Below, in pieces: positions 19,206 to 47,398 of a stretch of DNA of 64,000 bases. This DNA is from Alphaproteobacteria bacterium (GTDB lineage: Bacteria; Pseudomonadota; Alphaproteobacteria; SHVV01). How positions within the stretch are numbered: position 1 is the first letter of the stretch; the number at the start of each line of letters is the position of its first letter. The position numbers and the translations under genes were made by a program. The notes under the pieces were generated by a model. It made no database searches. It saw only the letters and a list, made by a program, of their open reading frames with translations, and was not told the origin of the DNA. Location of the stretch: assembly GCA_965261735.1 (NCBI GenBank), contig OZ253470.1, positions 1,188,129 through 1,252,128 of the forward strand, written 5' to 3'.

Positions 19206-19653
19206 CGACCTGTCAAGACGGCTGCTGCCGAGGCCGAGTGGCGCCCGAAGCTGACGTCGCGCTCAGGCCGGCGCCGCCGTCCCTGGTCGTGACGGGCCTC
19301 AAAATCGGCTGATGCCGGTCCCGATGCCGCATGGGGGATTCGGGCTCTTAGGCCCCTACTGCGACCGCCTGAGAGGCCCGTCAGCGCGTTTCTAGGGGTC
19401 GGGCGGTAAGATGGGTGCCCTCTGGGGAAGCCACGATTCGACAGGCGGCGATGTCCCCGACTGACGCGATTCTGAAGGAGCAGGTTGCAAGTTAGGAACA
19501 TGTTCCGAATTCGCACGGACATAACCTCGGGCAACGTTGCCCCAGGTTCCATTGACCGCAAGTCCACTTACCGCTGGCGCATCATGTCGCGAGGAAGCTG
19601 TAGTGGCCTAGAAGTTTCAGACCGGATAAATTCAGGCCACTACGATGTTCGTT

Positions 19654-20721
19654 CCTTGCCTATCCGGTTTACACCCACACCCACTAGGGCTAGAATGGGC
19701 GCAACCCGGATATAGGGGAGCGCGCCATGGATGTTCTCGACCGCGCCGATCTCCCATTCCCGCATTCGCTACCCGAGTTCCAGCGACTTTTCCCCGATGA
19801 TGCGGCCTGCGCCGCCTACCTGGAGAAAGCCCGCTGGGGAGACGGCTTTGCCTGCCCGCACTGCGGCACGGCGGGAGAGCCGTTCCACTTTGAAAACCGC
19901 CCTGGCGTCCTGCGCTGCCGCAAGTGCCGCCAGAACACCGGGCTGACGGTGGGAACAGTGATGGAGCGTAGCCACACTCCGCTGAACGTCTGGTTCTGGG
20001 CCGCTTATCTGGTCGCCAGTCAGACGCCCGGCATGTCCGCCGTGCAGTTTCAGCGGCAACTTGGTCTTTCGCGCTACGAGACGGCCTTTCAAATTCTCCA
20101 CAAGCTCCGCTCGGGCATGGTGCGGCCCAACCAAGACAGGATCGGTGGACAGCCCAAGAACCATGTTGAGGTGGACGAAACCTGGGTTGGCGGGCGAACG
20201 CGTGGGGAAGGCCGTGGTGTTCACCACAAGGTTCCCGTCTCCTGTGCCATCGAGGTGCGTCATCGAAAGCCGGGCACCAAGCTCGACAACCGGAAAGACG
20301 GACGCTATGCCGGACGCGTTCGGCTCGCCGTCGTGCTCGACCGTAGCGCCGAGTCGCTCTGTGGGTTCGTCGAGAGCACCGTCGCGCCGCGATCGCTGAT
20401 CGTTACTGACGATTGGAGCGGCTATGCTGGCCTCGGGAAGCGCGGCTATGAGCACTTCGCTGTTGCCGAGTGTGGTGATCCAGAGGTTGCCGAGCAATAC
20501 CTGCCGATCATCCATCTGGTTTTCGCCAACCTGAAGACGTGGCTGATCGGTATCCACCACGGCGTTAGCCACCAGCACCTACAAGCCTACCTCAACGAGT
20601 TCACCTTCCGCTTCAACAGGCGGTTCTACCCGTTCAACGCCTTCCGCTCATTGCTCGGCATCGCGGGCGACACCTCTGCTCCAACCTATGCCGAGCTTTA
20701 CTCGGGAGAGTGGCGGCACCC
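19654..20721 (+). mobile_element. IS1595-family insertion sequence, copy 1. The transposase is intact except for the C-terminal 7 aa. The right terminal roughly 36 bp, including the IR, is deleted together with the 3' end of the adjacent peroxiredoxin gene.
   Basis: Left IR CCTTGCCTATCCGGTTTACACCCACACC at 19654. The transposase (19727 onward) has an N-terminal Zn-finger CPHCG...CRKCR and a DDE domain. Homology to the intact copy 3 stops at 20721 (gagtggcggcaccc), where the copy 3 sequence tacatgtagcggtcatggg... is missing. Confidence 0.85.
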
Positions 20722-20724: not shown

Positions 20725-21186
20725 GAGGTTCACCTCGAGCCCTAGCGCCCTGGTAAAGTTGCCGTTTCCGTCCGCCAGCATCAGGATCTGGCCGCCGACG
20801 TGCTGATCTCCGGCCCAGGCACACATGACGAAGGCGTCGTTAACGGCAAGGCAGGCAATCGTGTCGATTCCCTTCGCCTTGATTGTCGCGGCACTGGCGA
20901 CGAACCCGGGTAGATGCTGCGCCGAACAGATCGGTGTGAAGGCTCCCGGAACCGAAAACAGTACCACTCTCTTGCCACCGAAGAGGTCGCCCGTGGAGAT
21001 CGCCTGCGGCCCCTCGTCGGTCATCGTCATCAGGCTCGCCGCGGGGATCCTTTCACCAATGAGTATGGTCTTGCGAAGGCCGATCTCGTTCATCTGGGTG
21101 GTGAAGATGTTGTCGAATTGCTCCTTGCTGGCCTTGAACAATTCATCGAGTGATGCCGACCCTACGGCGCGATTCTGCTCGGTCAT
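20725..21186 (-). pseudogene. Prx5-type peroxiredoxin (atypical 2-Cys, AhpC/TSA fold) with a roughly 40-aa N-terminal extension. The last roughly 40 codons are missing because of an IS1595-associated deletion.
   Basis: Core ILIGERIPAASLMTMTDEGPQAISTGDLFGGKRVVLFSVPGAFTPICSAQHLPGF... ends at ...NFTRALGLEVNL and is fused to the IS tail. The N-terminus MTEQNRAVGSASLDELFKASKEQFDNIFTTQMNEIGL precedes the usual start equivalent, which is TIxxGDKLP. Confidence 0.75.
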
Positions 21187-21193: not shown

Positions 21194-21721
21194 TCACAGC
21201 AGCTCGACGCATCGCGCCAACGCCCGCTCCACGGCGCGATGGAATGCCGCTTCCTCTGGATCCACGGTGGACCTGCCGCGGGACATCTCTTCAGGCTGAA
21301 TTGCGAAGGCCACACCGTCCGCGCTTCCCGTGATCTCGTGTCCATCGCCGGACGAATTGATGTGGGCCCTACCGAACTGCGACTTGCTGATGTTTTGATC
21401 CGCCAGGATCAGTTTGCACAGAACGATGAACTCATCGCCATCGCGGCGGCGATCCGCCACCTCGTAGCGCCACCCGTCGCCATAGCGGTCATCGAGGAAG
21501 CGCACCGTTTCCGACGATCCCACCGCGGCCGCCGAGTCGGGTTCGGTTGTCTGGGCCACGGGCCGTGCCGTATACGGCCCATCGCCCAGCGAATTGCCCT
21601 GACGCCCTGTGCCGGCAAGGCTTGATCCTCGGCCGGCATAGAGTTCCTCGAGCCGTTCGCGATTGCGGCCCAGCATTTCGTCAAATGCCGACGAGTAGCC
21701 GGGCCGGCGGTTGGAGACCAT
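21194..21721 (-). CDS. Standalone 175-aa protein homologous to the N-terminal extensions of both HyuB proteins in this window (GDGW / Rad52-like-signature domain). It is translationally coupled between the amidase and the peroxiredoxin.
   Basis: MVSNRRPGYSSAFDEMLGRNRERLEELYAG...RFLDDRYGDGWRYEVADRRRDGDEFIVLCKLILADQNISKSQFGRAHINSSGDG...AAFHRAVERALARCVELL. There is an 11-nt gap to the upstream gene and a 7-nt gap to the downstream gene. Confidence 0.7.
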   Translation of the reverse strand: MVSNRRPGYSSAFDEMLGRNRERLEELYAGRGSSLAGTGRQGNSLGDGPYTARPVAQTTEPDSAAAVGSSETVRFLDDRYGDGWRYEVADRRRDGDEFIVLCKLILADQNISKSQFGRAHINSSGDGHEITGSADGVAFAIQPEEMSRGRSTVDPEEAAFHRAVERALARCVELL

Positions 21722-21732: not shown

Positions 21733-22443
21733 TCAGGTTTGGGCGCTGGGCTCGCCGCTCCACCAACGTTGGAAATCGTGCCGGGCCGTGGCCGCATAGC
21801 CGCTCGTGCCGGCCGCCCTCAGGTGCGCCATCACCTCCTCGCTTGAGACAACGTCGCCGTACTTGGCGTCGATGTCGAACAGGTTGGCCTCGTGCGGCTC
21901 CTCGGCCCGATCGCCGACGCCATCGCGCACCACGATCGTGTGGTAGCCGCACTGCATCGAGTCGATCGCCGACGCACGGATGCAGCCACTTGTCGTGCAC
22001 CCGGTCATAACGATGGTATCGACACCGCGCGACTTCAGGTAGGCATCCACATCGGTGCCAAAAAAGGCGCTGGCGAACTTCTTTTCCACCACATACTCGC
22101 CGTTGTCGGGGGCGATGCGCTCGTCCACCTCGACCATCGGGGAGCCCCTGCGTAGGATGGCCAGCGCAGGCACTTTCTTGATGAACATACCCGCGTCCCG
22201 AAAGTGCGCCTCATAGGCGATCGTGGTGTACACGATAGGCAGACCGCCGCGCCGGAACGCGGCCAATAGCTCGTTCGTGACCGCCAACTGATTGGAGAAA
22301 TCACCACCCAAGGGCGTCGTCGGATCGGTGAACCCCCTGATGAAATCGACGATCAGAAGGGCGGGCTTGGTACCATACCCGGCGCGGCCGGCGAAGCCTT
22401 TGTGCCGGTACTCCTCAAACGTCTGCTCTTGCCAGTCGTTCAT
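21733..22443 (-). CDS. Isochorismatase-family cysteine hydrolase, N-carbamoylsarcosine amidase-like (paralog 1).
   Basis: ALLIVDFIRGF...VDTIVMTGCTTSGCIRASAIDSM has the D-K-C triad context of CSHase/isochorismatase hydrolases. About 45% identical to paralog 2 at 45691..46377. Confidence 0.8.
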   Translation of the reverse strand: MNDWQEQTFEEYRHKGFAGRAGYGTKPALLIVDFIRGFTDPTTPLGGDFSNQLAVTNELLAAFRRGGLPIVYTTIAYEAHFRDAGMFIKKVPALAILRRGSPMVEVDERIAPDNGEYVVEKKFASAFFGTDVDAYLKSRGVDTIVMTGCTTSGCIRASAIDSMQCGYHTIVVRDGVGDRAEEPHEANLFDIDAKYGDVVSSEEVMAHLRAAGTSGYAATARHDFQRWWSGEPSAQT

Positions 22444-22722
22444 TTTGCACCTCCGCAAGAGACCTGAGCCCGCGACCGCCAGCCCGGCCATCGCAGCGTC
22501 GCTCGGCCTCGCTGCCGCCTCGATTTAACACCTCTTGAGGACTTCGATCAACGCGAGCAGAACCGCGGCGAACTGGCTTGATCTCCGCCGGTTAGCCCAT
22601 TATCAACAAAAGGGCAAGGGAGCCCTTCGATTCTGTGGACATCCGGGCCGCGCGATCGGCGGGAGAGACGATCGCCGGAGTGAGTGTCTCAAGATCAACG
22701 CCAATTCGTGGGAGAGCGACCG

Positions 22723-23796
22723 ATGAGCGATGATTCCACCCCCGATCCCGCCCTAGATCCCGACCGGCAGCGGCCTCGCGCGGAGGTGCTAGCGGCAGGT
22801 GGGCCGCGCTACAGCCCGCGGCCACTGCTCACTCCCTCATCCCACAATTCACTGACCGATGCGCGGCGACTTAGGGGATCCGGCACGGAAGGCCGCAAGG
22901 ACATCCTGTGTGCCTTCGGCGTCGACGTAGACGCCGTCGCCGGGTGGCTCGGCTCCTATGGCGGGGAGAACTCGCCGTGCGACATCTCGCGCGGACTGTT
23001 CGCGGGCGAGGTGGGCGTTCCGCGGCTGGTTAAGCTGTTCGACCAGCTCGGCATCAAAACCACGTGGTTTATCCCGGGCCACTCGATCGAGACCTTTCCG
23101 CAACAAACCAAGCTGGTGGTCGATGCGGGTCACGAAATCGGCATACACGGCTACTCCCACGAAAACCCGATCGCCATGACGCCGGACCAGGAGGAGGCGG
23201 TGCTGGATAAATGCATCGACCTCATCCGCGGCGTCTCCGGGCGCAGCCCTACCGGTTACGTCGCACCCTGGTGGGAGTTCAGTCCGGTCAGCAACGAATT
23301 GCTGTTGAAAAAAGCGATCAAGTACGACCACAGCCTCATGAACGACGACTTTCACCCGTTCTACGTTCGGGTCGGCGACAGCTGGACTCCAATCGACTAC
23401 GCCAAGCATCCGCGCGAGTGGATGAAGCCATTGGTACGCGGCGAGGAGACCGATCTGATCGACATCCCGGCGAGCTGGTACCTCGACGACCTGCCGCCAA
23501 TGATGTTCATCAAGAGCGCCCCCAACAGCTTCGGCTTTGTCAATCCGCGCGACATCGAGCAGCTTTGGCGCGACCAGTTCGACTGGGTGTATCGTGAGAA
23601 CGACTACGCCGTGTTCACCATGACCATCCACCCCGACGTTTCGGGACGGCCGCAGGTGCTGCTCATGCTCGAGCGGCTCTACAATCACTTCATCAGCCAC
23701 CCCGGCGTGCGCTTCTGCACCTTCGACGAAATCGCTGACGACTTCAAACGGCGCTCCCCACGCGATACCGGGGCGGGCGCAAAGGCCGCCGAGTAG
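22723..23796 (+). CDS. Polysaccharide deacetylase (NodB/CE4-fold) family protein, PuuE-allantoinase-like cyclic amidohydrolase.
   Basis: NodB-homology motifs ...[12 protein letters not shown].., [11 protein letters not shown] and ...WW.. are present. Length and motif pattern resemble metal-independent PuuE-type allantoinases. A GGGAGAG RBS precedes the ATG at 22723, and the ORF-track start at 22684 is also possible. Confidence 0.6.
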
Positions 23797-23826
23797 CGGC
23801 GCGCCAAAACAGGAGGCGAGACGGAA

Positions 23827-24156
23827 ATGTGCAGCTTGTGCGGGGTGCTCGCAGGCCGGGGGCATTGGACGGAGTCTTCGAGCCATCCTGAGGCGTTCGC
23901 GGACGGCGCGCCAGCGACCCGGCGGGCGGAGCGCCAACGGCGCGCGCGCCTCGCCAGCACGATTCTCAAGTTTTACGGGCTGACGCTCCGAGATTGGGAG
24001 GGCACGTCCTATATATTGCAGGGCGGCACCGGCCGGACCCTTTTGATCGAGAATCTGACTGACCTGTGGGCCGCCGCCGACCGTATGAGCGGAAGGACCT
24101 GCGACCCGCTGGACGCCTCCCTACTGGCCGCGCTAACCGGGGCGGAACATCCATGA
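23827..24156 (+). CDS. Hypothetical 109-aa protein, translationally coupled upstream of the COG0523 GTPase.
   Basis: Strong RBS AGGAGG 11 nt upstream. Stop is 13 nt before the GTPase start. No recognisable domain. N-terminus MCSLCGVLAG. Confidence 0.45.
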   Translation: MCSLCGVLAGRGHWTESSSHPEAFADGAPATRRAERQRRARLASTILKFYGLTLRDWEGTSYILQGGTGRTLLIENLTDLWAAADRMSGRTCDPLDASLLAALTGAEHP

Positions 24157-24169
24157 CTGGCGCTCACCG

Positions 24170-25264
24170 ATGACGGACTACGCTTCCCTCCTGCCGATCA
24201 ATGTCATAACCGGGTTTCTCGGCAGCGGCAAAACCACCCTGCTGCGGGATTTGTTGCGATCGCCGCACCTACGCGACACCGCGGTGCTGATCAACGAGTT
24301 CGGCGAAGTAGGACTGGATCATCATCTGTTCCGCCACGTCTCCGAGAGCACGGTGCTGCTCGAGAACGGCTGCCTCTGTTGCGCCGTACGCGGCGATCTC
24401 AAGTTGGCCCTGCACGATCTGCTGTCGAAGCGCGACAAAGGAGAGCTGCCCCCCTTCCGGCGCGTCGCGATTGAGACCTCCGGCCTCGCCGACCCCGTGC
24501 CCATCGCCTACACAATCCTGGCCGAACCGGTCCTGCAACACCACTTCCGCCTCGGCAACGTGGTGACCACGATTGACGCGGTGAACGGGGCGGGTCAACT
24601 GGATCAGTTCGAGGAATCGGTGAAACAGGTCTCCGTCGCCGATCGCTTGGTGTTGACCAAGACGGACCTCTGCGGTGCGCCGGAGGTTGCGGTGCTTCGC
24701 GATATTTTGAGCCGCCTCAACAAGTCGGCGCCGGTGTTCGAGTCGGTCGCGGAGGGGATCGATCCCGAGCATCTGCTGGCGCAGGATATTTACAATCCGG
24801 GCGACTACCGGGAAGCAAGCCGATGGCTCGTCGACCGTAGCGAACACCCGGTAAGTGCGGAATGCGAGATTCTCCACCACCACCACGACCCGGGCATCTT
24901 CTCCTTTTGCCTGTGTTTCGATCAGCCCATGGATTGGACTGCCTTTGGCGTCTGGATGACGATGCTCCTCAACCGCCATGGCGAAAAAGTGCTCCGCATC
25001 AAGGGCATGCTCAACGTTGCCGGCCAAGCCGCTCCCGTGCTTATCAACGGGGTGCAGCACATCGTGCATCCACCAGCCCATCTCGACGACTGGCCCGACG
25101 CGGATCATCGCTCGCGCATCGTGTTCATCGTTCGTGACATGTCGCGCCGGCGCATCGAGGCTTCTCTGGCGGCCTTCAACGACCTCGCCAATCCGCGCGC
25201 CACCATGGACGCCGAAAACCGACCCGGGCCGACCACGGCCCTCGACTCTGCCAGCGTCGGTTAA
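24170..25264 (+). CDS. COG0523 / CobW-family G3E GTPase, a putative metal-insertion chaperone.
   Basis: Walker A GFLGSGKTTLL, the metal-binding GCLCCAVR (CxCC) motif, and the His-rich stretch ILHHHHDPG. Confidence 0.85.
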   Translation: MTDYASLLPINVITGFLGSGKTTLLRDLLRSPHLRDTAVLINEFGEVGLDHHLFRHVSESTVLLENGCLCCAVRGDLKLALHDLLSKRDKGELPPFRRVAIETSGLADPVPIAYTILAEPVLQHHFRLGNVVTTIDAVNGAGQLDQFEESVKQVSVADRLVLTKTDLCGAPEVAVLRDILSRLNKSAPVFESVAEGIDPEHLLAQDIYNPGDYREASRWLVDRSEHPVSAECEILHHHHDPGIFSFCLCFDQPMDWTAFGVWMTMLLNRHGEKVLRIKGMLNVAGQAAPVLINGVQHIVHPPAHLDDWPDADHRSRIVFIVRDMSRRRIEASLAAFNDLANPRATMDAENRPGPTTALDSASVG

Positions 25265-25914
25265 GGGGCCGAGTCGGACGAAGACACCCGCGGTGGTGGC
25301 CGGCGCGGACGCCAGCCGATCCTGAAAGCGCGCACCGCGTGGTGGAGCAGGAAAAACGCTATCGCGAGAATCACCAGCAAGATGATGGCGAGGAGCTTGC
25401 CGCCAAACCCCGCATCGATGATCGGACCACGGCTCATCAAGTGCTCGCTCAGCATCTCGACGGCTTGCAGAGTGGCGCCGCCAAAAAAGATCAAGGCTAT
25501 GAGAATGGCTATCTGTAGGGTATCGAAGACGAGCCCTTCGACCTCAAGATCAGTGGCGGCCCGGAAGATGTTTCTGCGGAAGGATTGCCAATGGGAGACC
25601 GCGTAGCCGATCACCCCGACGAGCGACGCGAACCAGAATATGACGTTGGAAAAATGGATGCGCGGAATACTTTGGGTCAAGTAATCTTCGAACGGCCGAT
25701 AAAAATAGAGGAAGATCAACAGTATGACGAGACCAACCAGGATGATCCAAAACCTCGGCCGCTGCCAACTGGTGCTGTCCTGTGCCATGATGAGCGGGGC
25801 CGCTCCGTCCCGGGGGTTCCAGTAGCTGCTTATCGTCTCGGCGCACCTCGGGCAAGCCAAAAAACGGCTCTCGCCAACCTCGACCTCAATGCACTGCGGT
25901 GAATCCGTTCTCAC
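25261..25914 (-). CDS. 4-TM membrane protein of unknown function, paralog A. The likely start is the internal Met at 25788.
   Basis: ...LYFYRPFEDYL...IFWFASLVGVIGYAVSHWQSFR...FGGATLQAVEMLSEHLM...IDAGFGGKL... is about 40% identical to 39509..39976. Confidence 0.55.
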   Translation of the reverse strand: MRTDSPQCIEVEVGESRFLACPRCAETISSYWNPRDGAAPLIMAQDSTSWQRPRFWIILVGLVILLIFLYFYRPFEDYLTQSIPRIHFSNVIFWFASLVGVIGYAVSHWQSFRRNIFRAATDLEVEGLVFDTLQIAILIALIFFGGATLQAVEMLSEHLMSRGPIIDAGFGGKLLAIILLVILAIAFFLLHHAVRAFRIGWRPRRPPPRVSSSDSAP

Positions 25915-26133: not shown

Positions 26134-28197
26134 ATGAGCAGCCGCCTCGGCATTGATGTGGGTGGGACTTTCACCGATCTCTTGCTGTTCAACGAGAGTA
26201 GCGGCGAAATCCACCTGCTCAAGACGCCGTCCACGCCCGAAGACCAGTCGGTCGGCATTCTCAACGGCGTCGAGCGGCTGATCGCCCAATCGGGCATACC
26301 CGCGGCCGAGATTCAGACGGCACTCCACGGCACCACGGTATCGACAAACATCGTGCTCGAGGAAAAAGGCGCCAAAGTCGGCCTGCTGGTCACGGAAAAC
26401 TTCGAGCAGGTGCTGCATTTGGCGCGGTCGCAGACGCCGGGGCCGCTGGCCGGTTGGATCATCATGATCAAGCCGGATCCGCTCGCGGATCTGGAGTTGA
26501 CCCGTGGTGTCCCGGAACGCATCAACGCGCGCGGCGAAATCCTCAAGCCGCTCGATGAAGCCTACGTGCGCACCGCCATACCGGACCTCATAGAGGCAGG
26601 CGTGGAATCGATTACGGTATCATTACTCCATTCCTACGCCAACGCCGCGCACGAGGTACGGATCAAGGAGATCATCCAGGACCTGGGAATCGAGGTGCCG
26701 GTTTCGCTGTCCAGCGAAATTCTCCCGGAGTTTCGTGAATACGAGCGGACTCTGGTCACGGTGATGAACGCCTACGTGCGGCCCAGCATGCGCAGCTATC
26801 TGAGGAACTTCGAGGACAAGTTGCGCAGCATCCAGTTTTCGCCCCATGTGAACATCGTGCGCTCCGATGGCGGACTGATGAGCGTGGAGCGCGCCTCCGA
26901 GTCCCCCGTCTACACGATGTTGTCCGGGCCGGCGGGCGGGGTTTCGGGTGCCGCTTTTCTCGCCGCGCTGGCCGGGAGCCCCAATGCTCTCGGTTTCGAC
27001 ATGGGTGGCACCTCGACCGACGTTTCGCTGATCCAAGATGGCCAACCGATGATCTCGCGCCAGACCTCGCTCGGCTATTACCCACTGAAGGTGCCCTCCG
27101 TCGAGGTACACAGCGTCGGCGCAGGTGGCGGCTCCATCGCCCATGTGCCGATGACCGGCGCTCTGCGCGTCGGTCCCGAGAGCGCGGGCGCCGCGCCTGG
27201 CCCCGCCTGCTACGGTAGGGGCGGCGACCAGCCCACGGTGACGGACGCCAACGTGGTGCTCGGGCGCTTGCCGCCGAGCCTGCTCGGCGGCGACATGGCG
27301 CTGGACGTCAAGGCGGCCGAGGAAGCGGTGGCGAAGATCGGGCGCGCCCTTGGTCTCGACACCTACCAGGCGGCTCAGGGGATTCTCGATATCGTCAACG
27401 AGAACATGTTCGGGGCGCTGCGACTGGTATCGGTGCAGAAGGGTCTCGATCCGCGGGACTTCGCGCTCGTCGCCTTTGGCGGGGCGGGCCCCCTTCACGG
27501 CAATGCCATGGGCGCGCTCGCGCAGTGCTACCCGGTGATCATCCCCCCGACCCCTGGAGTGCTCTCGGCCCTAGGGTTTCTCTACTCGGACGTAAAGAAC
27601 GAGTTCGCCAAGACGTTTATCCGCAATCTCAACGAAGTGCATGCCGGCGATGTGACGGAAATCTTGACGCGGCTAGGCACTGAGGCGACAGCGTGGCTGC
27701 GCGAGGAAGGCATCGAGGAGCGAAGCCAGGAGCTGCGCTTCGAGGCCGACGTGCGGTATTTTCGCCAGGGCTACGAGATCTCCCTTACCGTGACCCCCAG
27801 CACGTTGGTCAATGGCGGAATCCAGGATATTGAGAATCGTTTCGGCGCCATCCACGAACGGCTGTATGGTTTCAAGTTGGATGCGCCGGTCGAGCTCGTG
27901 AACCTGCGCGCCGTCGGTACCGGCCGGGTGGTGAAGATCAAGTTCCCGAGCTTCGAGAAGCAAGGCAGCGATCCCTCCCCCGCCATGGTGGATCAACACC
28001 GGGTCTACTTCGACGGCAACTTTGTGTCGGCCAACGTTTACGATCGCAACCTGCTCGCCGCGGGCAACCGCATCTCGGGCCCAGCGGTGGTCACACAAAC
28101 GGATTCGACCACCCTCATCCACCCCGCGCACAGCGGAGAGGTGGACGCGTATCTGAACATCTTGATTTATCCGCAGGGCGCGAGTCCTTCGGCATGA
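26134..28197 (+). CDS. hyuA: Hydantoinase A / N-methylhydantoinase (ATP-hydrolysing) A subunit / oxoprolinase family, copy 1.
   Basis: 687 aa. N-terminal ASKHA fold GIDVGGTFTDLLLF, an AAGGRSGA-type motif region and a DMGGTSTD motif. RBS AAGGAAAGG. Confidence 0.9.
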   Translation: MSSRLGIDVGGTFTDLLLFNESSGEIHLLKTPSTPEDQSVGILNGVERLIAQSGIPAAEIQTALHGTTVSTNIVLEEKGAKVGLLVTENFEQVLHLARSQTPGPLAGWIIMIKPDPLADLELTRGVPERINARGEILKPLDEAYVRTAIPDLIEAGVESITVSLLHSYANAAHEVRIKEIIQDLGIEVPVSLSSEILPEFREYERTLVTVMNAYVRPSMRSYLRNFEDKLRSIQFSPHVNIVRSDGGLMSVERASESPVYTMLSGPAGGVSGAAFLAALAGSPNALGFDMGGTSTDVSLIQDGQPMISRQTSLGYYPLKVPSVEVHSVGAGGGSIAHVPMTGALRVGPESAGAAPGPACYGRGGDQPTVTDANVVLGRLPPSLLGGDMALDVKAAEEAVAKIGRALGLDTYQAAQGILDIVNENMFGALRLVSVQKGLDPRDFALVAFGGAGPLHGNAMGALAQCYPVIIPPTPGVLSALGFLYSDVKNEFAKTFIRNLNEVHAGDVTEILTRLGTEATAWLREEGIEERSQELRFEADVRYFRQGYEISLTVTPSTLVNGGIQDIENRFGAIHERLYGFKLDAPVELVNLRAVGTGRVVKIKFPSFEKQGSDPSPAMVDQHRVYFDGNFVSANVYDRNLLAAGNRISGPAVVTQTDSTTLIHPAHSGEVDAYLNILIYPQGASPSA

Positions 28198-28205: not shown

Positions 28206-30497
28206 ATGACTGACCTGAACCCGCCGCGCAGATCGGTCTCGCTGGACGACTTGCTGAAGGCCAACAAGGCGCAGTTCGACAGTGTCTTCGCGGCCCAGAT
28301 GAGGGACACGGGCCTGGTGAGCGTGACCCATCGGCCGGCCACGGCAGAGGATCTTGTCTCGGCTAGCCTAGGGGTCCGGGCGGTCGTCGACGGCGACGAT
28401 AGTACGGCACTCCTCGACGGGCGGTTTGGCGAGGGTTGGTCATCCGAGGTCGTCGAACACAAGACCGAAGGCGGCTCGGTCACGGTGCTGTGCAAGCTCG
28501 TGGTGGACGGGGTTTCAAAAATGCAGTTCGGTGCGGCACGGATCAACGGCGATCAGGGTGCCGCTCTGCAAAGGGCGACCGACGAGGCGCTCAAGAAGTG
28601 TGCGGCCCTGTTCGGGCCGCGAGAGGGGCTGCCGGAGGCAGAGGCCGGAGGCCCCGCCGCCCGACCGCAAGAGGCGCCGGCCGCGGGAGCCCAGCCCGAT
28701 GCCGCCGTGCCCAGCCTCGCCGCCCCCACTAGCCGTGCGCTGGACACGATCACCCTGGATCTCATCGAAAACGCGCTGCGCAACGCCCGGCACGAGATGG
28801 ACGCCGTACTCTTCCGCTCCGCCATGTCACCCGTGATCCGCGAGCAACACGACGAGTTTCCCATGATCACCGACCCCAAGGGGCGGATGATCGTCGGCCA
28901 GTTCGGCTCCTACGTCGCCGAGATGCTGCGCGAGCAGAACATGCAGGTTGATCCGGGCGACGTCATTCTCAATAACGATCCCTTCAAATGCGGCGGCGCC
29001 ATCAGCCATATCAACGATTGGCTCGTGCTCGTGCCGATCTTTCACGGCAACGAACTTGTCGGCTTCAGCTCCATGTTCGGCCACATGATGGACGTCGGCG
29101 GCTGGGTGCCCGGCAGCATGCCGACCGCCGCCACGTCGATCTTCGGCGAGGGAATCCGCATCCCGCCGATCAAGATCTACGCGAAGGGCGAGATCAACAA
29201 GGCGGCGCTCGGCATCATCATGAACAACACGCGCACGCCCGAAATGAACTACAGCGACCTCATGGCTATCATCGCCGGCTGCCGTGCCGGCGAGAAGCGG
29301 GTGATCCAGATCTGCGACCGCTTCGGTAAGGACACCTACATTCAGGCGTGTGAGGCCCTGCTTGAGCGTACCAACCGCGCGATGCGGCAGCTCATCGTTC
29401 AGAACCTGCCCAATGAGCCTCAGTCGTTCGAAGACTACGTAGATGATGACGGCTGCGGCAACGGCCCCTTCAAGATGAAACTGACCGTGTGGCGCGAGGG
29501 CGACGAGGCCTTCTTCGATTGGACGGGGACCTCAGATCAGGCGCCGGGTCCGATCAATTTCTTCCTCAACGAGGGCATGTTCAAGATGTTCATCGGGGTC
29601 TACATGATCATGGTGTTCGACCCCCAGATTCTCTTCAACGACGGATTCTACGACCTCATTCACGTGACCCTACCCAAAGGGTCGCTCGTGCACCCGGAGT
29701 TCCCGGCAGCGCTGGGCTGCCGCACGCACGCCCTCGCCCGCCAGTTCGACGTCCTCGGCGGCGCGCTGAGTAAAAACGCGCCGGAAATGGCCACTGCCGC
29801 CGGCTATGGCTCAAGCCCTCACTTCCTGTACTCGGGCGTTGACGGCGATGGCCGCCCGTTCCAGCTCATGGAGATACTGTTTGGCGGGATTCCCGGCCGC
29901 CCGGTAGGCGACGGCATGGATGGCCACTCGTGGTGGCCGCTATTCGAGAATATTCCCACCGAATACCTCGAAACCTACTATCCGATGATCATCGAAAACT
30001 ACACCACGCTAGCCGACACCGGCGGCGCTGGGAGGCACCGCGGCGGCAACGGCGTCGAAAAGGTTTACTTGTTGTTGGAGAACGGCGAGATCTCCATCCA
30101 CGATGACCGCCATCTCACCCAGCCGTGGGGGATTCTCGGAGGACAACCGGGCGCTTGCTCGGAAAAATGGCTGGAGAAAGAGGACGGGTCCAGGGAGCCG
30201 TTGCCCTCGAAGGTGGACAACGTAAGAGTGCGCGGGGGCGACAGGATCATCTTCCGCACCGCCGGCGGCGGCGGCTGGGGCGACCCATTGGAACGCGAGC
30301 CGGCAAAGGTGCGCGGCGACGTGGTGCGCGGTCTCTTGACCGTGGGCGCCGCCCAGGAACGGTACGGCGTGGTCATCGGCAGCGTCGGGCTCACCATTGA
30401 CGACCGGGCGACCCAGGAGTTGCGCGAGAAGCTGAAAGGGAATCGAGGGACCCTCCCGGTGTTCGATTTTGGTGCGCAGCCATCGGGTCATGCATGA
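28206..30497 (+). CDS. hyuB: Hydantoinase B / oxoprolinase-family subunit, copy 1, with an unusual roughly 190-aa N-terminal extension: an amphipathic peptide, a GEGW (Rad52-like-signature) domain and a Pro/Ala-rich linker.
   Basis: The HyuB homology starts at about residue 190 (LDTITLDLIENALRNARHEMDAVLFRSAMSPVIREQHDEF...). The N-terminus is MTDLNPPRRSVSLDDLLKANKAQFDSVFAAQMRDTGL...LLDGRFGEGWSSEVVEHKTEGGSVTVLCKLVVDGVSKMQFGAARINGDQGAALQRATDEALKKCAALFGP. Confidence 0.85.
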   Translation: MTDLNPPRRSVSLDDLLKANKAQFDSVFAAQMRDTGLVSVTHRPATAEDLVSASLGVRAVVDGDDSTALLDGRFGEGWSSEVVEHKTEGGSVTVLCKLVVDGVSKMQFGAARINGDQGAALQRATDEALKKCAALFGPREGLPEAEAGGPAARPQEAPAAGAQPDAAVPSLAAPTSRALDTITLDLIENALRNARHEMDAVLFRSAMSPVIREQHDEFPMITDPKGRMIVGQFGSYVAEMLREQNMQVDPGDVILNNDPFKCGGAISHINDWLVLVPIFHGNELVGFSSMFGHMMDVGGWVPGSMPTAATSIFGEGIRIPPIKIYAKGEINKAALGIIMNNTRTPEMNYSDLMAIIAGCRAGEKRVIQICDRFGKDTYIQACEALLERTNRAMRQLIVQNLPNEPQSFEDYVDDDGCGNGPFKMKLTVWREGDEAFFDWTGTSDQAPGPINFFLNEGMFKMFIGVYMIMVFDPQILFNDGFYDLIHVTLPKGSLVHPEFPAALGCRTHALARQFDVLGGALSKNAPEMATAAGYGSSPHFLYSGVDGDGRPFQLMEILFGGIPGRPVGDGMDGHSWWPLFENIPTEYLETYYPMIIENYTTLADTGGAGRHRGGNGVEKVYLLLENGEISIHDDRHLTQPWGILGGQPGACSEKWLEKEDGSREPLPSKVDNVRVRGGDRIIFRTAGGGGWGDPLEREPAKVRGDVVRGLLTVGAAQERYGVVIGSVGLTIDDRATQELREKLKGNRGTLPVFDFGAQPSGHA

Positions 30498-38032: not shown

Positions 38033-39499
38033 GTGACCGTATTGATCAAGAACGGCCGTATTGTGACCGCCGTCGATGACTACCACGCCGATATTTTTGT
38101 CAACGGCTCCACGGTTACCGTGATCGGGAAGAACCTGAACATCGAAGCGGATCGGGTGATCGACGCCTCGGGGAAGCTCGTCATTCCCGGCGGGGTCGAC
38201 CCGCACACCCATCTCGACCTACCGTTCGGCGGAACCACGACCTCCGACGACTTCGAGACCGGGACGCGCGCCGCGGCCTTTGGCGGAACCACGTGCCTCG
38301 TGGATTTCGCCGTGCAGTTGAAGGGTACCTCGACGCTGGAGGCGCTCGAGAAATGGCACGAGAAGGCCGCCGGCAAGACCGCCATCGATTATGGCTTTCA
38401 CATGATCATCACCGACATGCCGACCCATCGTACGCCAGAAATGAGGCGTCTCGCGGACGAGGGAATCACTAGCTACAAGCTGTTCATGGCCTATCCCGGT
38501 GCCATGCTGTCCGACGACGGCACCATCTTCCGCACGATGCGCAAGGCCGGTGAGGACGGAACCCTCGTGTGCATGCACGCCGAGAATGGAATCGTCATCG
38601 ACGAGCTCGTCAAGATCGCTCTCGCCGAAGGCCACATCGAACCCAAATATCACGCCTTGACCCGGCCGACCCGTCTCGAGGCCGAGGGAACGCACCGGGC
38701 GCTCGCCATCGCCGAGGTCGCGCGCTCGCCCGTCTACATCGTGCACATGAGTTGCCACGATTCGCTCCATGAGCTTCGCCAAGCCCAGGCCCGCGGGGTC
38801 ATGGCCCACGGCGAGACCTGCCCGCAATACCTCCTGCTCGACGTCGGCGCCTATGACGAGCCGGGATTCGACGGTGCCAAGTACGTGCTGACCCCGCCGC
38901 TGCGAGAAAAGTGGAACCAGGACGAACTATGGCGGGGTCTGCGCGGCAACGCCCTCAACGTCATTTCGACCGACCATTGTCCGTTCTGCCTACGCGAGCA
39001 GAAGGAGCTCGGGCGCGACGATTTCAGCAAGATCCCGAATGGCGGCCCGGGCATCGAAAACCGGATGAGCCTCATCTATCACCATGGCGTCGGAGCCGGC
39101 CGCATCGGCCTCAATCGCTTCGTCGAGCTCACCTCGACCGCCCCGGCCAAGATCTTCGGCCTCTTCCCGAAGAAGGGAACACTGGCCGTCGGCAGCGACG
39201 CCGATATCGTGATCTTCGATCCCGACCGCGAGGAGACGATCAGCTATTACAATGCGGCCACCCACCACATGAACATCGATTACAGCGCCTACGAGGGCTT
39301 TAAGGTCAAGGGCTACACGGAGACCGTGCTGAGCCGCGGCAAGGTCATCATCGACAAAGGCGAGTATTTGGGTCGACCGGGAGACGGCATGTTCGTCAAG
39401 CGAGGGCCCTACGGCGGCATGTACGCCGCCGCACCGGGTATGGGTGCGCCGCCGGCCGACTCGCGGTGGGACACCAGCGGGCCATCGCGCGCCGCCTGA
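38033..39499 (+). CDS. hydA: D-hydantoinase / dihydropyrimidinase (cyclic amidohydrolase, metal-dependent).
   Basis: GTG start with RBS GGGAGGA. GGVDPHTHLD metal-binding His pair, carboxylated-Lys context YKLFMAY, HAEN and TDHCPF motifs. 488 aa. Confidence 0.9.
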   Translation: MTVLIKNGRIVTAVDDYHADIFVNGSTVTVIGKNLNIEADRVIDASGKLVIPGGVDPHTHLDLPFGGTTTSDDFETGTRAAAFGGTTCLVDFAVQLKGTSTLEALEKWHEKAAGKTAIDYGFHMIITDMPTHRTPEMRRLADEGITSYKLFMAYPGAMLSDDGTIFRTMRKAGEDGTLVCMHAENGIVIDELVKIALAEGHIEPKYHALTRPTRLEAEGTHRALAIAEVARSPVYIVHMSCHDSLHELRQAQARGVMAHGETCPQYLLLDVGAYDEPGFDGAKYVLTPPLREKWNQDELWRGLRGNALNVISTDHCPFCLREQKELGRDDFSKIPNGGPGIENRMSLIYHHGVGAGRIGLNRFVELTSTAPAKIFGLFPKKGTLAVGSDADIVIFDPDREETISYYNAATHHMNIDYSAYEGFKVKGYTETVLSRGKVIIDKGEYLGRPGDGMFVKRGPYGGMYAAAPGMGAPPADSRWDTSGPSRAA

Positions 39500-39508: not shown

Positions 39509-39976
39509 TCAGGGTTGCTGCGTGGCGGGACGGATGATCTTAAGCAGCCAAAAAATGATGCAAAACACGCCGGTCAGGATCACCAGCGCGGCGACGGCGC
39601 CAAGGCGCTCGCCGAACCCCGCATCGAGGGCGTACTCCTGCCGCAGAAGATGGACGCAGAGGATTTGAACCGCCTGCAGTGTCGCGCCGCCACTCAGTAG
39701 GATCGCGACGAAGGTGGAGCCCCGTAGCGAACTCAGCACCATGGATTCGATGCTGCGCTGCTGCACGATGTGGACGCGGTAGGCGTGCCAGTGATAGGTA
39801 CAAAACCCGATGATGCCGATGATCAACGCGACCCAGAAGATCGCATTCTCGAACCTTATTCCATAGACGACCAGCTTGAACAAGTCCTCAAAGGGCTCGT
39901 AAAAATAGAGAAACATCAAGACAACAATGAAAAGCAGGAAGCCCACGAGCGTCCAAAACCATTGCCACCCAGTCAT
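39509..39976 (-). CDS. 4-TM membrane protein of unknown function, paralog B.
   Basis: MTGWQWFWTLVGFLLFIVVLMFLYFYEPFEDLF...LLSGGATLQAVQILCVHLL...LDAGFGERL. Convergent with hydA at a 10-nt gap. Confidence 0.55.
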   Translation of the reverse strand: MTGWQWFWTLVGFLLFIVVLMFLYFYEPFEDLFKLVVYGIRFENAIFWVALIIGIIGFCTYHWHAYRVHIVQQRSIESMVLSSLRGSTFVAILLSGGATLQAVQILCVHLLRQEYALDAGFGERLGAVAALVILTGVFCIIFWLLKIIRPATQQP

Positions 39977-40125: not shown

Positions 40126-41187
40126 TCACGCGGCCGTTTCCGCAGCCGCGACAATAAGAAGGACACCGTAGAGAACCAGAAATACGGCGTCCTTAACCGC
40201 CGGAACGAGCTGTTTTTCCGCCCGATTGACGGCGATTAGGGCGATGGCCTCAAGAACAAAAAAGACTCCCGACAAGAAGAAGAACGGCCATATGCTGCGC
40301 CACCAGGACAGCTCTTCCGCTTGGGGCACCTCTTGTACCCATCTCGATATCAGCAATAAGAGGGGCAACACCATCAAGTAGCCGTACGCCACAAGGAAGC
40401 GAAACCGCGTGAGCTTCCGGTCCAGTATCCAGAACGTAAAGAAGAAAAGAACGACGTGGAGAAAATCCCAAAAGAGCGACGCATATTGATCGCTCTCGGT
40501 GACCTGCAACAGGTTGAGGAACCCAAGTAGAAGCAGAAAGACGATGCCGTCGCAGAATAGCCATTCGCGCACCGTCTCGCCGGCGCTCTTCATGCTCCAG
40601 GCGCGGGTCGCCTTGTCGAACAGCAGCACCACGCCGACCGCCACGCTGGCCGGATAGATTAGATGGAGCATCAGCGCGTACTGCTGCGCCCTCGGGACGT
40701 AGATCCAGTTGAGCAGCAGGAAGGCGAGCCCCAGGGCCAGTAGTCCCAAGAGGCGCGCTCCGGCAGGAGTCTCGAATTCCGACGGCGTGGCCGGGGTTTC
40801 GCCGTCTGCCGCCGCTACCGCTCGCGGCTGCCGAGGCAGGCGGGCGAAAAGAAAGACAACGAAGGCCGCGAGCCCGACCGCGCCGACGACCGACATTGCA
40901 ACGATGAAGACGACCGATCGCCGGCCCGTCCGCCAATCCGTTGCCGCCAGCTGCTCTTGCACGCCCGGAAGGAACTGCCAGAGCGCCAGCAGGACGACGA
41001 CCAGGAGCAGGATCGCCGCCAATAGGAGCTCGTACCATTGTGGCGTGTATCCGCCGACCGGTCTGCCGGCCTCCGGCTGCTGTGATCGGCCTAGGTAACG
41101 AGTAACGAGGAAAACGAGGAAGGCCGCGACGGCAACCGCCGCGATGGCGATCATGACCTCGAGGAAGGCAACCGATCTGCTATCCAC
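40126..41187 (-). CDS. Hypothetical polytopic membrane protein of about 10 TM, a possible permease, downstream of hyuB2.
   Basis: 353 aa, highly hydrophobic, no recognisable family motif. Confidence 0.45.
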   Translation of the reverse strand: MDSRSVAFLEVMIAIAAVAVAAFLVFLVTRYLGRSQQPEAGRPVGGYTPQWYELLLAAILLLVVVLLALWQFLPGVQEQLAATDWRTGRRSVVFIVAMSVVGAVGLAAFVVFLFARLPRQPRAVAAADGETPATPSEFETPAGARLLGLLALGLAFLLLNWIYVPRAQQYALMLHLIYPASVAVGVVLLFDKATRAWSMKSAGETVREWLFCDGIVFLLLLGFLNLLQVTESDQYASLFWDFLHVVLFFFTFWILDRKLTRFRFLVAYGYLMVLPLLLLISRWVQEVPQAEELSWWRSIWPFFFLSGVFFVLEAIALIAVNRAEKQLVPAVKDAVFLVLYGVLLIVAAAETAA

Positions 41188-41304: not shown

Positions 41305-43545
41305 CTAGCGAGACCGCAATCGCTGGGTCTCCTCCGAATTCAGGGTGTCAGCGACCGGATCGATGGCGACTCCGTAAACATCTCGGGCGATCTCTATTGT
41401 TATGTAGTCGTCCAGATAATCGCCCAGCACCATCGCCGGATCACGCGCTTTAGGATCGCCGTAGCCACCGCCGGAGGGCGCCGTGATTTGGATCAGATCG
41501 CCAGCTTCCATCTTATATCCGGTGACCTTGGAGGGCCAGTTCTGCTCTTCTGCCGTGCCCGGGTTCTTAACGAGCTTGCCCGTGTGGCCTTCCGTCCCAC
41601 CGAAGACGCCGTGCGGCTTTTCCAGGTGGCGGTCCGCCTCACACGAGATGTAACCCGGTGCGAGGAACCGGTTCTCGCGCACGATGCCGATGCCGCCGCG
41701 CCACTGGCCGGCGGCCGGAGGATCGGGCCGCAACTCGTAGCGCTCGTTGCGGATCGGATAGTGCATGTCGAGCTCTTCGACCGGATTGTTGCGCGTGTTG
41801 GCCATAAGGTTGTCGACGCTGTCCATGCCGTCCTTGCCGTGTCGGCCGCCGTAACTCCCCTCGTCGACCTCCAGATAAACCCAGTATTGCTGTTTCTCGG
41901 GAATGAACCCGCTGTAGGAGATGAAATAGAGCGACGCGGAATTGCCCCCGGTCGCCCTTTCCGGGATGACCGGCGACAGCGCGTGAATGACGCAGTCCAG
42001 CACCCTCTGAATCTGGGCGAAGCGTGAAAAGCAGGCGCGCGGAAAGTTTGGATTGAAGATCGTGCCCTTGGGGGCAATGACGTTGACCGGGCGGAAGATG
42101 CCCTCGTTTTGCGGGATGAACTCCTCGAAGGTCACTTCGTCCAGCATTAGGGTACGAACGATGTAGTTGCAAGCGACCACGAGACTGCCCTCGAAGGGCA
42201 CGTTGAAGCCGGTCTCCACCTCGGCCGCCGACCCGGTGAGGTCGATGGTGATGTCGCTGCCCTTGACACGCACGGTGACGTTGACCTTCAGCGGCGTATC
42301 GCGGTTTTTCCCGTCGTCATCCAGCCAGCCCTCGGAGTGGTACTCACCGTCGGGAACCTTTTCGATCTCGGCGCGCAGCATTCTTTCCGAGTAGTCCATC
42401 CAATAGTTTGCCGTGCCCATGACGGTGTCCGCGCCGTATTTCCCGACGAGCCGCAGAAAACGCTCGCGTCCGATTTCCACCGCCGCGATCATCGCCTCGA
42501 TATCCGAGGTATCCATGTCGGGGGTGCGCACGTTGTCCTTGAGGAGTTGCCAGACCTCCTCGTTACGGGTTCCGCGGTCGTACAACTTGATGGCGTTGAA
42601 GAGCTTGGACTCGGCGTAGACGTCGACCACGTCGACATTGATGCCGGGGGCGGCGCCGCCCATGTCGAGCAGGTGCGCGGTGCAGGCGGAGAACCCCAAT
42701 AGCCCGCCGTCATGAACGATGGGCACGATCACGGCCACGTCGGGCGTATGCGAGGCGCCGTAATAGGGGTGGTTGTGGATGATGACGTCGCCCTCGTGGA
42801 TGTTGCCGGCCAACCGTTTCAGGATGCCTCTGATGTACCAGGGAAGAGAACCGATGTGCATCGGCGTGCTCTCGCTCTCGCAGAGCTCATTCCCTTCCAT
42901 GTCGAAAATGCCGCAACCCAGGTCCTCCGACTCGCGAATGATGCTCGAGTAGGACATTCGGTAAAGGACGTGGGCCATCTCCTTGGCGATGGCGTTGAAG
43001 GCGCCGCCCACCACGCGAAGCGTGACTGGGTCGAGGTCCTGATATGAAAAGTCGGTAATCTTCGATGGCGCCGGACGGCCAGTCAGCGCCACCGCGGTCG
43101 AAACTGGCTCGGAGTCGGCCTGTCGCAACGCTGGCAGCTGGGGCGCGGGCGCCGGCCGCAGAGCCTCCGCCGCCGGTTCCGTTGCCTCGGGCGGGGAGGC
43201 TACCGGAGCGTCCGTTGTGGCCGGTAGCCCCGGTCGCGGCCGGACCGTGTCCGGCGGCGCGGCGCCCCGCCCGGTATCGACGAGCGTCATTGCGCACTGG
43301 AGGAGGCTGTCGTCGGAGGCGACCTCGAGCTGCTCGCCCAGCGACAGACCACCGCGCCCGTTGGCCGTTCCCGATTTTCGCACCTGGGCGCCGTCCGCCC
43401 GCAGCTCGCCTTCCACTTCCACGCCGTCGCCACGCAGGTGGTGGTTGATAATGTCGAAACTCCAACCGTCGCCGTAGGCGTCGCGGAGTGCCTTGACGAC
43501 GGCGGGGACGGTTGTTGGTCCCGTCGTACTTGGCGCGTCATTCAT
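41305..43545 (-). CDS. hyuB: Hydantoinase B / oxoprolinase-family subunit, copy 2, with a roughly 175-aa N-terminal extension: a GDGW domain and a Pro/Ala-rich linker.
   Basis: MNDAPSTTGPTTVPAVVKALRDAYGDGWSFDIINHHLRGDGVEVEGELRADG...SLLQCAMTL, then a P/A/T-rich linker, then HyuB homology from ...LDPVTLRVVGGAFNAIAKEMAHVLYRMSYSSIIRESEDLG. Confidence 0.85.
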   Translation of the reverse strand: MNDAPSTTGPTTVPAVVKALRDAYGDGWSFDIINHHLRGDGVEVEGELRADGAQVRKSGTANGRGGLSLGEQLEVASDDSLLQCAMTLVDTGRGAAPPDTVRPRPGLPATTDAPVASPPEATEPAAEALRPAPAPQLPALRQADSEPVSTAVALTGRPAPSKITDFSYQDLDPVTLRVVGGAFNAIAKEMAHVLYRMSYSSIIRESEDLGCGIFDMEGNELCESESTPMHIGSLPWYIRGILKRLAGNIHEGDVIIHNHPYYGASHTPDVAVIVPIVHDGGLLGFSACTAHLLDMGGAAPGINVDVVDVYAESKLFNAIKLYDRGTRNEEVWQLLKDNVRTPDMDTSDIEAMIAAVEIGRERFLRLVGKYGADTVMGTANYWMDYSERMLRAEIEKVPDGEYHSEGWLDDDGKNRDTPLKVNVTVRVKGSDITIDLTGSAAEVETGFNVPFEGSLVVACNYIVRTLMLDEVTFEEFIPQNEGIFRPVNVIAPKGTIFNPNFPRACFSRFAQIQRVLDCVIHALSPVIPERATGGNSASLYFISYSGFIPEKQQYWVYLEVDEGSYGGRHGKDGMDSVDNLMANTRNNPVEELDMHYPIRNERYELRPDPPAAGQWRGGIGIVRENRFLAPGYISCEADRHLEKPHGVFGGTEGHTGKLVKNPGTAEEQNWPSKVTGYKMEAGDLIQITAPSGGGYGDPKARDPAMVLGDYLDDYITIEIARDVYGVAIDPVADTLNSEETQRLRSR

Positions 43546-46902: not shown

Positions 46903-47398
46903 TCCACCGATCCTGTCTTGGTTGGGCCGCACCATGCCCGAGCGGAGCTTGTGGAGAATTTGAAAGGCCGTCTCGTAGCGCGAAAGACCAAGTTGCCGCT
47001 GAAACTGCACGGCGGACATGCCGGGCGTCTGACTGGCGACCAGATAAGCGGCCCAGAACCAGACGTTCAGCGGAGTGTGGCTACGCTCCATCACTGTTCC
47101 CACCGTCAGCCCGGTGTTCTGGCGGCACTTGCGGCAGCGCAGGACGCCAGGGCGGTTTTCAAAGTGGAACGGCTCTCCCGCCGTGCCGCAGTGCGGGCAG
47201 GCAAAGCCGTCTCCCCAGCGGGCTTTCTCCAGGTAGGCGGCGCAGGCCGCATCATCGGGGAAAAGTCGCTGGAACTCGGGTAGCGAATGCGGGAATGGGA
47301 GATCGGCGCGGTCGAGAACATCCATGGCGCGCTCCCCTATATCCGGGTTGCGCCCATTCTAGCCCTAGTGGGTGTGGGTGTAAACCGGATAGGTAAGG
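46903..47398 (-). mobile_element. IS1595-family copy 2, truncated. It keeps the 5' IR and the first 141 codons of the transposase and is fused to the D-carbamoylase remnant.
   Basis: IR ...GGTGTGGGTGTAAACCGGATAGGTAAGG at 47371-47398. The transposase reads MDVLDRADLP...NQDRIGG and then switches to carbamoylase sequence. Confidence 0.8.

Follow-up and report, generated by a model that had tools for sequence, protein, structure and literature searches.

A two-part module with a Rad52-like core on HyuB-type hydantoinase subunits

Why would a catabolic hydantoinase subunit carry, ahead of its enzyme domain, a stretch of protein that recalls the core of the DNA-annealing protein Rad52? The question is raised by a 64,000-nucleotide (nt) stretch of DNA (the window) from Alphaproteobacteria bacterium (assembly GCA_965261735.1, contig OZ253470.1, positions 1,188,129 to 1,252,128), which encodes two HyuA/HyuB pairs and a standalone protein of 175 amino acids (aa). 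An earlier note on this sequence had pointed to such an extension on both HyuB paralogues (HyuB1 and HyuB2) and to a free copy of it in the standalone protein. We find that the extension is a conserved accessory module of one HyuA/HyuB-type ATP-dependent hydantoinase lineage, the nearest solved relative of which is N-methylhydantoinase, and that it has two parts, a short tag helix and a Rad52-like core. That the module is real, two-part and of Rad52 fold is in our judgement highly probable. The coordinates of all features are collected in Table 1.

A conserved two-part extension

The enzyme part of each HyuB occupies the C-terminal 570-580 residues and is a full-length Hydantoinase_B (PF02538, profile positions 1-519 of 519 covered in both proteins; HyuB1 residues 180-694, E 1e-149; HyuB2 residues 172-698, E 2e-157), with a HyuA gene directly upstream of each. 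The extension ahead of this domain amounts to about 170-180 residues in both. The best solved relative of HyuB1, the N-methylhydantoinase 7hk5_A (E 5e-77), is aligned from HyuB1 residue 167 onwards, and the caprolactamase/hydantoinase beta subunit CapB (6yra_B, 581 aa) is aligned over HyuB1 residues 178-737 and has no extension. The first 166-229 residues of HyuB1 gave no alignment to any solved Hydantoinase_B relative. Other HyuB-type subunits (7hk5, 6yra_B, acetone/acetophenone carboxylase alpha/delta) share the same full-length Hydantoinase_B and a HyuA partner. The claim of an N-terminal extension on both paralogues is therefore borne out: the open reading frames (ORFs) and the sequences originally quoted are all present and the solved relatives lack the extension. 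The gamma subunit of acetone carboxylase is a known small extra subunit of the hydantoinase-type enzyme family; a likeness to it was considered and rejected, as that family appeared in no Pfam scan of the modules.

A fusion of this kind could be produced by a mis-called start codon, by read-through of two genes or by an assembly frameshift, and in databases the sequences related to the HyuB1 N-terminus are indeed often annotated as proteins of their own, 150-230 aa long and encoded immediately ahead of HyuB. These separate calls, however, stem from long-read assemblies with a high error rate, whose HyuA, HyuB and CobW genes are broken up as well, and the tails of the called proteins consist of frameshifted or truncated HyuB sequence. 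All nine species-representative genome loci (one of which, L014, is cut by the locus end) hold a single unbroken ORF across module and HyuB, with 715-870 codons from stop to stop, and the fusion is found in 41 complete metagenome ORFs of 754-783 aa counted from the tag. The linker is in frame. The start codon of HyuB1 is supported by residues conserved from Met1 in dozens of homologues and by a GAGG 8 nt upstream of the ATG, whilst public gene calls agree on the lengths of HyuB2 (746 aa) and of the standalone protein (175 aa, P0045). An artefact is refuted by the unbroken ORFs of the genome loci and metagenome contigs, and we regard it as exceedingly improbable. The fusion accounts for the existence of HyuB proteins of about 750-780 aa, which helps their annotation. 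Many of the 'hypothetical proteins' of 150-230 aa upstream of HyuB (L001, L002, P0001-P0033; ENA long-read assemblies of metagenome-assembled genomes, MAGs) are frameshift artefacts of the fused gene.

Sequence comparison indicates that the three copies of the module, in HyuB1, HyuB2 and the standalone protein, are related beyond chance. The standalone protein matches the HyuB1 N-terminus in BLASTP with E 3e-15, which, together with the presence of its ORF, upholds the view that it is built from the same module. The HyuB2 N-terminus is more distant; it scores 30.9 bits against a family hidden Markov model (HMM) built without HyuB2, where the best of 2000 shuffles reaches 8.4 bits, and a word-based database search with it found no relatives. 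Two parts of the earlier description need revision. A single module of about 100-190 aa followed by a Pro/Ala-rich linker had been proposed; the linker stands, and the single module resolves into a helix of about 25-30 aa, a disordered linker and a separate core of about 70-105 aa. The extension had further been taken to be the same in both HyuB proteins; the core is common to both, but the tag helix is present only in HyuB1, HyuB2 being core-only. The Pro/Ala linker of HyuB1 is poorly kept in length and sequence among orthologues.

The tag has invariant columns in two family alignments (S, L, Q-F-D, F and Q), and a tag HMM matches HyuB1 with 66 bits (E 2.6e-19). AlphaFold2 (AF2) predicts a helix at HyuB1 residues 13-34, with a block pLDDT (predicted local distance difference test) of about 51-54, and predicts the tag helix in the standalone model too, with a block pLDDT of 86-91; the tag of the standalone protein is a diverged form, SSAFDEMLGRNRERLEELY. 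A peroxiredoxin encoded directly downstream of the standalone gene begins ASLDELFKASKEQFDNIFTTQMNEIGL and matches the tag HMM with 50 bits (E 2e-14). Its first 40 residues are 41-64% identical to HyuB1-type N-termini, and its Redoxin domain starts only at residue 44. The tag is found on at least three different proteins of one cluster, namely HyuB1, the standalone protein and the peroxiredoxin. HyuB1-type proteins with the tag and the Pro/Ala linker but without the core also occur (L016, positions 1-1914, minus strand; L072, L023, L075 and L076). Because tag-only HyuB proteins, a tagged peroxiredoxin and a core-only HyuB2 all exist, tag and core are independent modules.

The N-terminal fusion (the nine genome loci, the 41 complete metagenome ORFs and HyuB2 of the window) is common in Alphaproteobacteria (Rhodospirillales-like MAGs); some Gammaproteobacteria have it too, as do metagenome contigs of many different samples. 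In HyuB2-type proteins of three loci (L008, 13096-15312, 738 aa; L013; L017, 13130-15352, 740 aa) the core lies at the C-terminus behind a Pro/Ala-rich linker. Since it is N-terminal in HyuB2 of the window, the core has switched ends during evolution. Its attachment at either end, via about 40-80 disordered residues, makes it unlikely to be part of the catalytic machinery and would suit an element for assembly or docking. Two gammaproteobacterial MAG loci (L010 and L012, 16151-20450) carry a third isochorismatase-HyuA-HyuB set, in which HyuB starts 68-86 nt past the end of HyuA and neither tag nor core is present; the module is thus limited to particular HyuB lineages.

Clustered at 50% identity, the family comprises at least 169 protein clusters at E <= 1e-10 and 611 at E <= 1e-3, the weaker matches of which may include low-complexity hits on linker columns. 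As a free-standing protein, the core occurs in at least 169 such clusters. The module is not covered as a family of its own by Pfam, NCBIfam or PHROGs, and a tblastn search of both module types against 72,556 plasmids gave no match. Literature searches found no paper that joins Rad52-like domains to hydantoinases or oxoprolinases, nor one that joins a hydantoinase to flotillin. The extension had been put forward as undescribed, and this holds in so far as it is unannotated and no paper making the link was found; it is nevertheless common within a HyuB subfamily, as the genome loci and metagenome ORFs show. An unannotated protein family, together with an unannotated common helix that is presumably used for docking, is thereby defined.

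Rad52 fold and departures from it

In the AF2 model of HyuB1 the core consists of a helix (residues 64-74), three strands (78-88, 91-100 and 103-112) and a last helix (117-135), with a block pLDDT of 83-90. The standalone core (residues 70-175) has a block pLDDT of 94-97 outside two loop blocks, and an extra beta-hairpin ahead of the last helix. Both models contain the beta-beta-beta-alpha core of the Rad52/Rad22 family. Searched with Foldseek, the HyuB1 model has RAD52 (8rj3_C, E 2e-4) as its top match, and for the standalone model the twelve best matches are all RAD52 (E 5.7e-4 to 6.5e-3). As judged from these models the core has the Rad52-superfamily fold, which largely bears out the proposed likeness at the level of fold.

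The sequences are further apart. PF04098 (Rad52_Rad22, gathering cut-off 20.3 bits) scores 16.8 bits on full-length HyuB1, 20.2 bits on residues 1-195 and 21.4 bits (E 2.6e-4) on the isolated residues 10-149, so that the profile check suggested in the earlier note places HyuB1 at the threshold, just above it for the isolated domain; the standalone protein and the HyuB2 copy of the window gave no match. Across the family PF04098 is the only recurrent Pfam match, seen in 10 of 39 fused-type members (E < 1, best 4e-5) and in 6 of 104 mainly standalone ones. By eye, the module and RAD52 share an [FY]G-x-x-GW motif ahead of strand 1, and a small-residue stripe along the last helix, which reads A-x3-A-x3-A-x3-C in the module (A159-A163-A167-C171 in the standalone protein) and A-x3-A-x3-G-x3-A in RAD52. 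The last helix of fused-type cores ends in xxFG, as does that of RAD52.

One negative and one weak result stand beside these matches. The family HMM found no match at E <= 10 among all PDB sequences, and hhalign of the family profiles with human RAD52 (the sequence identical to 1KN0, compared as one sequence and not as a family profile) gave weak local matches with E 0.005 and 0.04, in the right register. A scan of 104 members against PHROGs gave no consistent match to a phage annealase either, two members touching an Erf-like family with a best E of 0.057. These weak HMM and hhalign comparisons, and the fact that PF04098 is reached by a minority of members only, are what would be expected if the core were a generic alpha-beta-beta-beta-alpha domain like the double-stranded RNA-binding domains (dsRBDs), which had converged on its resemblance to Rad52. 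Such a convergence would concern the origin of the core only and would fit an assembly function equally. Rad52-family structures nevertheless rank above all dsRBDs in three independent searches, and PF04098 is the sole recurrent Pfam match, with no dsrm match in 143 scanned members. The FGxxGW motif and the last-helix stripe ending in FG moreover lie at equivalent positions. The N-terminal domain of ribosomal protein S5 also falls, with the dsRBDs, below Rad52-family structures in every search, and the module does not class as a dsRBD. We therefore consider convergence unlikely, and the core probably is a very divergent homologue of the Rad52/Mgm101 superfamily, a homology that is not proven.

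Whatever its origin, the core is, judged by its sequence, no canonical Rad52. Its likeness to Rad52, Rad22, Mgm101 and Sak (PF04098; 1KN0, 5JRB, 8G3G, 9YI6) lies in the profile match at threshold, in FGxxGW and in the helix stripe ending in FG, and the PF04098 match spans only profile positions 30-128 of 153. The module is a minimal core of 70-105 aa, whereas Rad52 has about 190 aa. The region of the N-terminal hairpin and alpha1 (human R55 and Y65) is absent, a predicted disordered linker (pLDDT < 50 or 50-60) standing in its place, and the C-terminal helices of Rad52 are likewise absent, the core ending with its last helix. In RAD52 these elements complete the groove for single-stranded DNA (ssDNA) and the ring. 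The module is also acidic where Rad52 is basic: the isoelectric point (pI) is 4.6-5.0 in the three cores of the window and 5.5 at the family median, compared with 8.2-8.7 in RAD52. With the register set manually via the FG end of the last helix, RAD52 K152, R153 and R156 correspond to K130, K131 and A134 in HyuB1, and to A169, R170 and E173 in the standalone protein, so that the groove Lys/Arg residues are partly kept; the family columns at these positions are mixed in character. Unlike Rad52, the standalone family has an extra hairpin inserted ahead of the last helix, and the module has a catabolic enzyme, not recombination or phage genes, as its fusion partner or neighbour. Invariant core positions are mainly packing residues (L, W, V, G and the Ala stripe) and a Cys in the last helix. 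With the R55/Y65 hairpin and the C-terminal helices missing, the cores acidic and K152/R153/R156 only partly basic, canonical ssDNA annealing is argued against.

Binding of nucleic acid in some other form may be envisaged. A moonlighting ssDNA- or RNA-binding or ring-forming domain, for example, could serve mRNA autoregulation or anchor the enzyme. The best structural matches are ssDNA-annealing proteins, followed by dsRBDs; HyuB1 has K130 and K131 at the positions of RAD52 K152 and R153, and the standalone family has a conserved RRR patch on its beta1-beta2 hairpin, in the region of RAD52 K102. Yet the window cores all carry a net negative charge, the elements of the ssDNA groove are missing and the equivalent of R156 is Ala or Glu. 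In the loci compared, the genes around the module have catabolic or membrane-related roles only, and none of those beside it is a recombination or phage gene. On balance, retained Rad52-like nucleic-acid binding appears quite improbable.

The cysteines of the core raise a different alternative, that of a thiol, redox or metal-handling role, for instance as an assembly or repair factor of the HyuAB metal site. The Cys of the last helix (C132 in HyuB1, C171 in the standalone protein) is near invariant (102 of 104 members) and a second one on strand 2 occurs in 58 of 104. The standalone gene has a peroxiredoxin gene beside it or close by in the window and at L020, L010, L012 and L017, and a gene for a CobW-type metallochaperone is conserved in the cluster. 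The core has, however, neither a CxxC nor a His/Cys cluster, and just one of its cysteines is invariant. This Cys lies in the small-residue stripe and, judged by its RAD52 counterpart A154, probably packs on the sheet and may be buried, and the second Cys is missing from HyuB2-type cores and from gamma-clade standalone proteins. Such a role would seem rather improbable. In the neighbourhoods of the standalone gene at L010 and L012 the Prx5-like gene is fused to another thioredoxin-like domain and is untagged; a Prx5-like gene is present at L017 too.

Gene neighbourhood and a possible assembly role

The gene order around HyuA1 and HyuB1 is rigid, and comprises a divergent gene for a protein with four transmembrane (TM) segments, HyuA, tag-core-HyuB and a gene for a flotillin-like SPFH protein. 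The 4-TM gene, orf217 in the window, is conserved upstream of HyuA1, and the SPFH gene follows the tagged HyuB wherever a metagenome locus extends at least 221 nt beyond HyuB, as well as in all genome loci with a downstream flank. We know of no earlier description of an SPFH scaffold coupled to a hydantoinase operon. In the window, the standalone gene lies directly after an isochorismatase-family gene, as it does in 16 of 18 other loci that carry it, the exceptions being L015 and L016, where it directly follows an orf217-type 4-TM gene. The amidase gene and the standalone gene lie near this conserved operon.

The isochorismatase-family amidohydrolase has N-carbamoylsarcosine amidohydrolase as its best solved relative (26st_A, E 6e-69; 1nba_A, E 8e-38). 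N-methylhydantoinase followed by N-carbamoylsarcosine amidohydrolase catalyses consecutive steps of a creatinine-type pathway. The similarities suggest that the N-methylhydantoinase-like HyuAB and the amidohydrolase perform two successive steps of a hydantoin/creatinine-type pathway; NCBIfam equivalog cut-offs were reached for no named enzyme.

Besides DNA binding, the Rad52 fold has the property of homo-oligomerisation. Weighing fold, linkers and neighbourhood together, we would give about an even chance to the reading in which the extension is an assembly module on flexible linkers, belonging to an N-methylhydantoinase-like system. The Rad52-like core would have lost DNA annealing and would act instead as a protein-protein assembly or oligomerisation hub, through which the cores of HyuB and of the free adaptor would co-assemble. 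The tag would be a portable docking helix by which clients are gathered on one shared partner, perhaps among the SPFH or membrane proteins. The resulting complex would be expected to include HyuAB, the standalone adaptor beside an amidase-like hydrolase, and accessory proteins such as the peroxiredoxin. It may be membrane-associated via the flotillin-like SPFH protein and the small 4-TM proteins, and ring opening, decarbamoylation and accessory functions could be coupled within it.

Taken one step further, a DNA-independent minimal offshoot of the Rad52 fold and a docking helix might together form the assembly system of an unrecognised membrane-associated catabolic complex on an SPFH scaffold. 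The cores of HyuB and adaptor would oligomerise into a hub, the helix would recruit HyuB, the adaptor beside the carbamoyl-amidase and a peroxiredoxin as clients, and the small 4-TM proteins would join the SPFH scaffold below. This more specific proposal is tentative and we hold it to be doubtful. If true, no earlier case would exist in which the Rad52 ring fold has been reused as a scaffold of metabolic enzymes. To our knowledge, the proteins so far known to have this fold (Rad52, Rad59, Mgm101, phage Sak and DdrA) all act in DNA and RNA transactions, and an acidic minimal Rad52-fold core on either end of a catabolic subunit, and also free, would show reuse of the fold beyond strand annealing.

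Several observations count against an assembly role of this kind. The core pI is above 7 in 31% of the family, and an E-R-R-R patch on the first hairpin is conserved among the standalone proteins, which leaves some room for binding of nucleic acid. A purely structural role would not require the last-helix Cys to be as conserved as it is. The hydrophobic moment of the tag is not above that of shuffles, so the tag is not significantly amphipathic, and an amphipathic or coiled-coil nature of it was dropped. At L017 and L018 no 4-TM or SPFH gene lies within 9 kb, so the idea that the core is always accompanied by one or the other was rejected.

The closest parallels to the tag are found among docking and targeting helices. 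Encapsulation peptides of bacterial microcompartments (BMCs), cargo peptides of encapsulins and docking domains of polyketide synthases and non-ribosomal peptide synthetases (PKS/NRPS) similarly place a short terminal helix and a flexible linker on different proteins of one cluster. The same short terminal peptide is found here on several putative cargo proteins, with the significant HMM matches given above for HyuB1 and the peroxiredoxin and a diverged form on the standalone protein. No BMC, EutN, encapsulin shell or PKS genes were found among the window ORFs scanned. In contrast to the BMC and encapsulin systems, the only conserved structural neighbour here is the flotillin-like SPFH protein, and the tag lacks significant amphipathicity.

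Table 1. Features of the HyuA/HyuB clusters in the window (positions of the 64,000-nt stretch)
Feature	Position	Strand	Description
HyuB1	28206-30497	+	763 aa: tag helix, linker, Rad52-like core, Pro/Ala linker, Hydantoinase_B domain
HyuB1 tag helix	28230-28307	+	about aa 9-34, SVSLDDLLKANKAQFDSVFAAQM
HyuB1 Rad52-like alpha-beta-beta-beta-alpha core	28395-28616	+	aa 64-137
HyuB1 Pro/Ala-rich flexible linker	28617-28742	+	aa 138-179, read from sequence
HyuB2	41305-43545	-	746 aa: core, Pro/Ala-rich linker (aa 92-171), Hydantoinase_B (aa 172-698)
HyuB2 N-terminal Rad52-like core	43273-43506	-	about aa 14-91; without tag helix
Standalone protein	21194-21721	-	175 aa: tag helix, disordered linker, Rad52-like core with extra beta-hairpin
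Standalone tag helix	21635-21694	-	aa 10-29
Standalone core	21197-21514	-	aa 70-175
Peroxiredoxin with tag helix	20698-21186	-	Redoxin aa 44-152, E 8.5e-25; tag about aa 9-38 (21073-21162)
HyuA1	26134-28197	+	Hydant_A_N, Hydantoinase_A, Hydant_A_C; ends 8 nt before HyuB1 start
HyuA2, partner of HyuB2	43558-45636	-	
Isochorismatase-family amidohydrolase, N-carbamoylsarcosine amidohydrolase-like	21733-22491	-	Pfam Isochorismatase; directly upstream of standalone gene
Second isochorismatase-family gene	45691-46377	-	
Flotillin-like SPFH/Band7 protein, 938 aa	30593-33409	+	N-terminal TM helix, SPFH (Band_7) domain, long E/R/A-rich coiled-coil repeats
orf217, small membrane protein	25261-25914	-	4 hydrophobic segments, no Pfam family; divergent from HyuA1
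orf155, orf217 paralogue in second Hyu set	39509-39976	-	4 hydrophobic segments, no Pfam family
orf353, multi-TM protein in second Hyu set	40126-41187	-	no family

Further genes accompany the two Hyu sets. A polysaccharide-deacetylase/PuuE-like hydrolase and the CobW-type GTPase metallochaperone (22684-25264, plus strand) are conserved between the amidase and HyuA1, and an ATP-binding cassette (ABC) ATPase gene follows the SPFH gene. Beside the second Hyu set lie a dihydropyrimidinase/D-hydantoinase gene (38033-39499, plus strand; TIGR02033, E 3.5e-180) and ABC-transporter genes. The deacetylase-like, CobW, D-hydantoinase and ABC-transporter neighbours suggest a broader catabolic island for cyclic amides or ureides.

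Mobile elements and other genes of the window

Two copies of an IS1595 insertion sequence (IS), each of 1070 nt, are 100% identical and inverted relative to each other (19652-20721 and 52799-53868); with a third, partial copy at 46899-47399 they bracket both Hyu clusters in a manner resembling a composite transposon. Homology of the peroxiredoxin to the intact 202-aa copy at L020 stops at 20722, next to the end of the left IS1595 at 20721, which indicates that the element cuts the 3' end of the peroxiredoxin gene. The window is rich in other IS, with DDE_3 (two copies), IS66, Mutator and IS4-type transposases. A mobile or integrative element may include this region, which also encodes (2815-4038, minus strand; 5241-8513, plus strand; 53956-55056, minus strand) a TraG/VirD4-like coupling protein of a type IV secretion system, a Fur-family regulator beside a large KatG-like haem peroxidase, and a SIR2-family protein.

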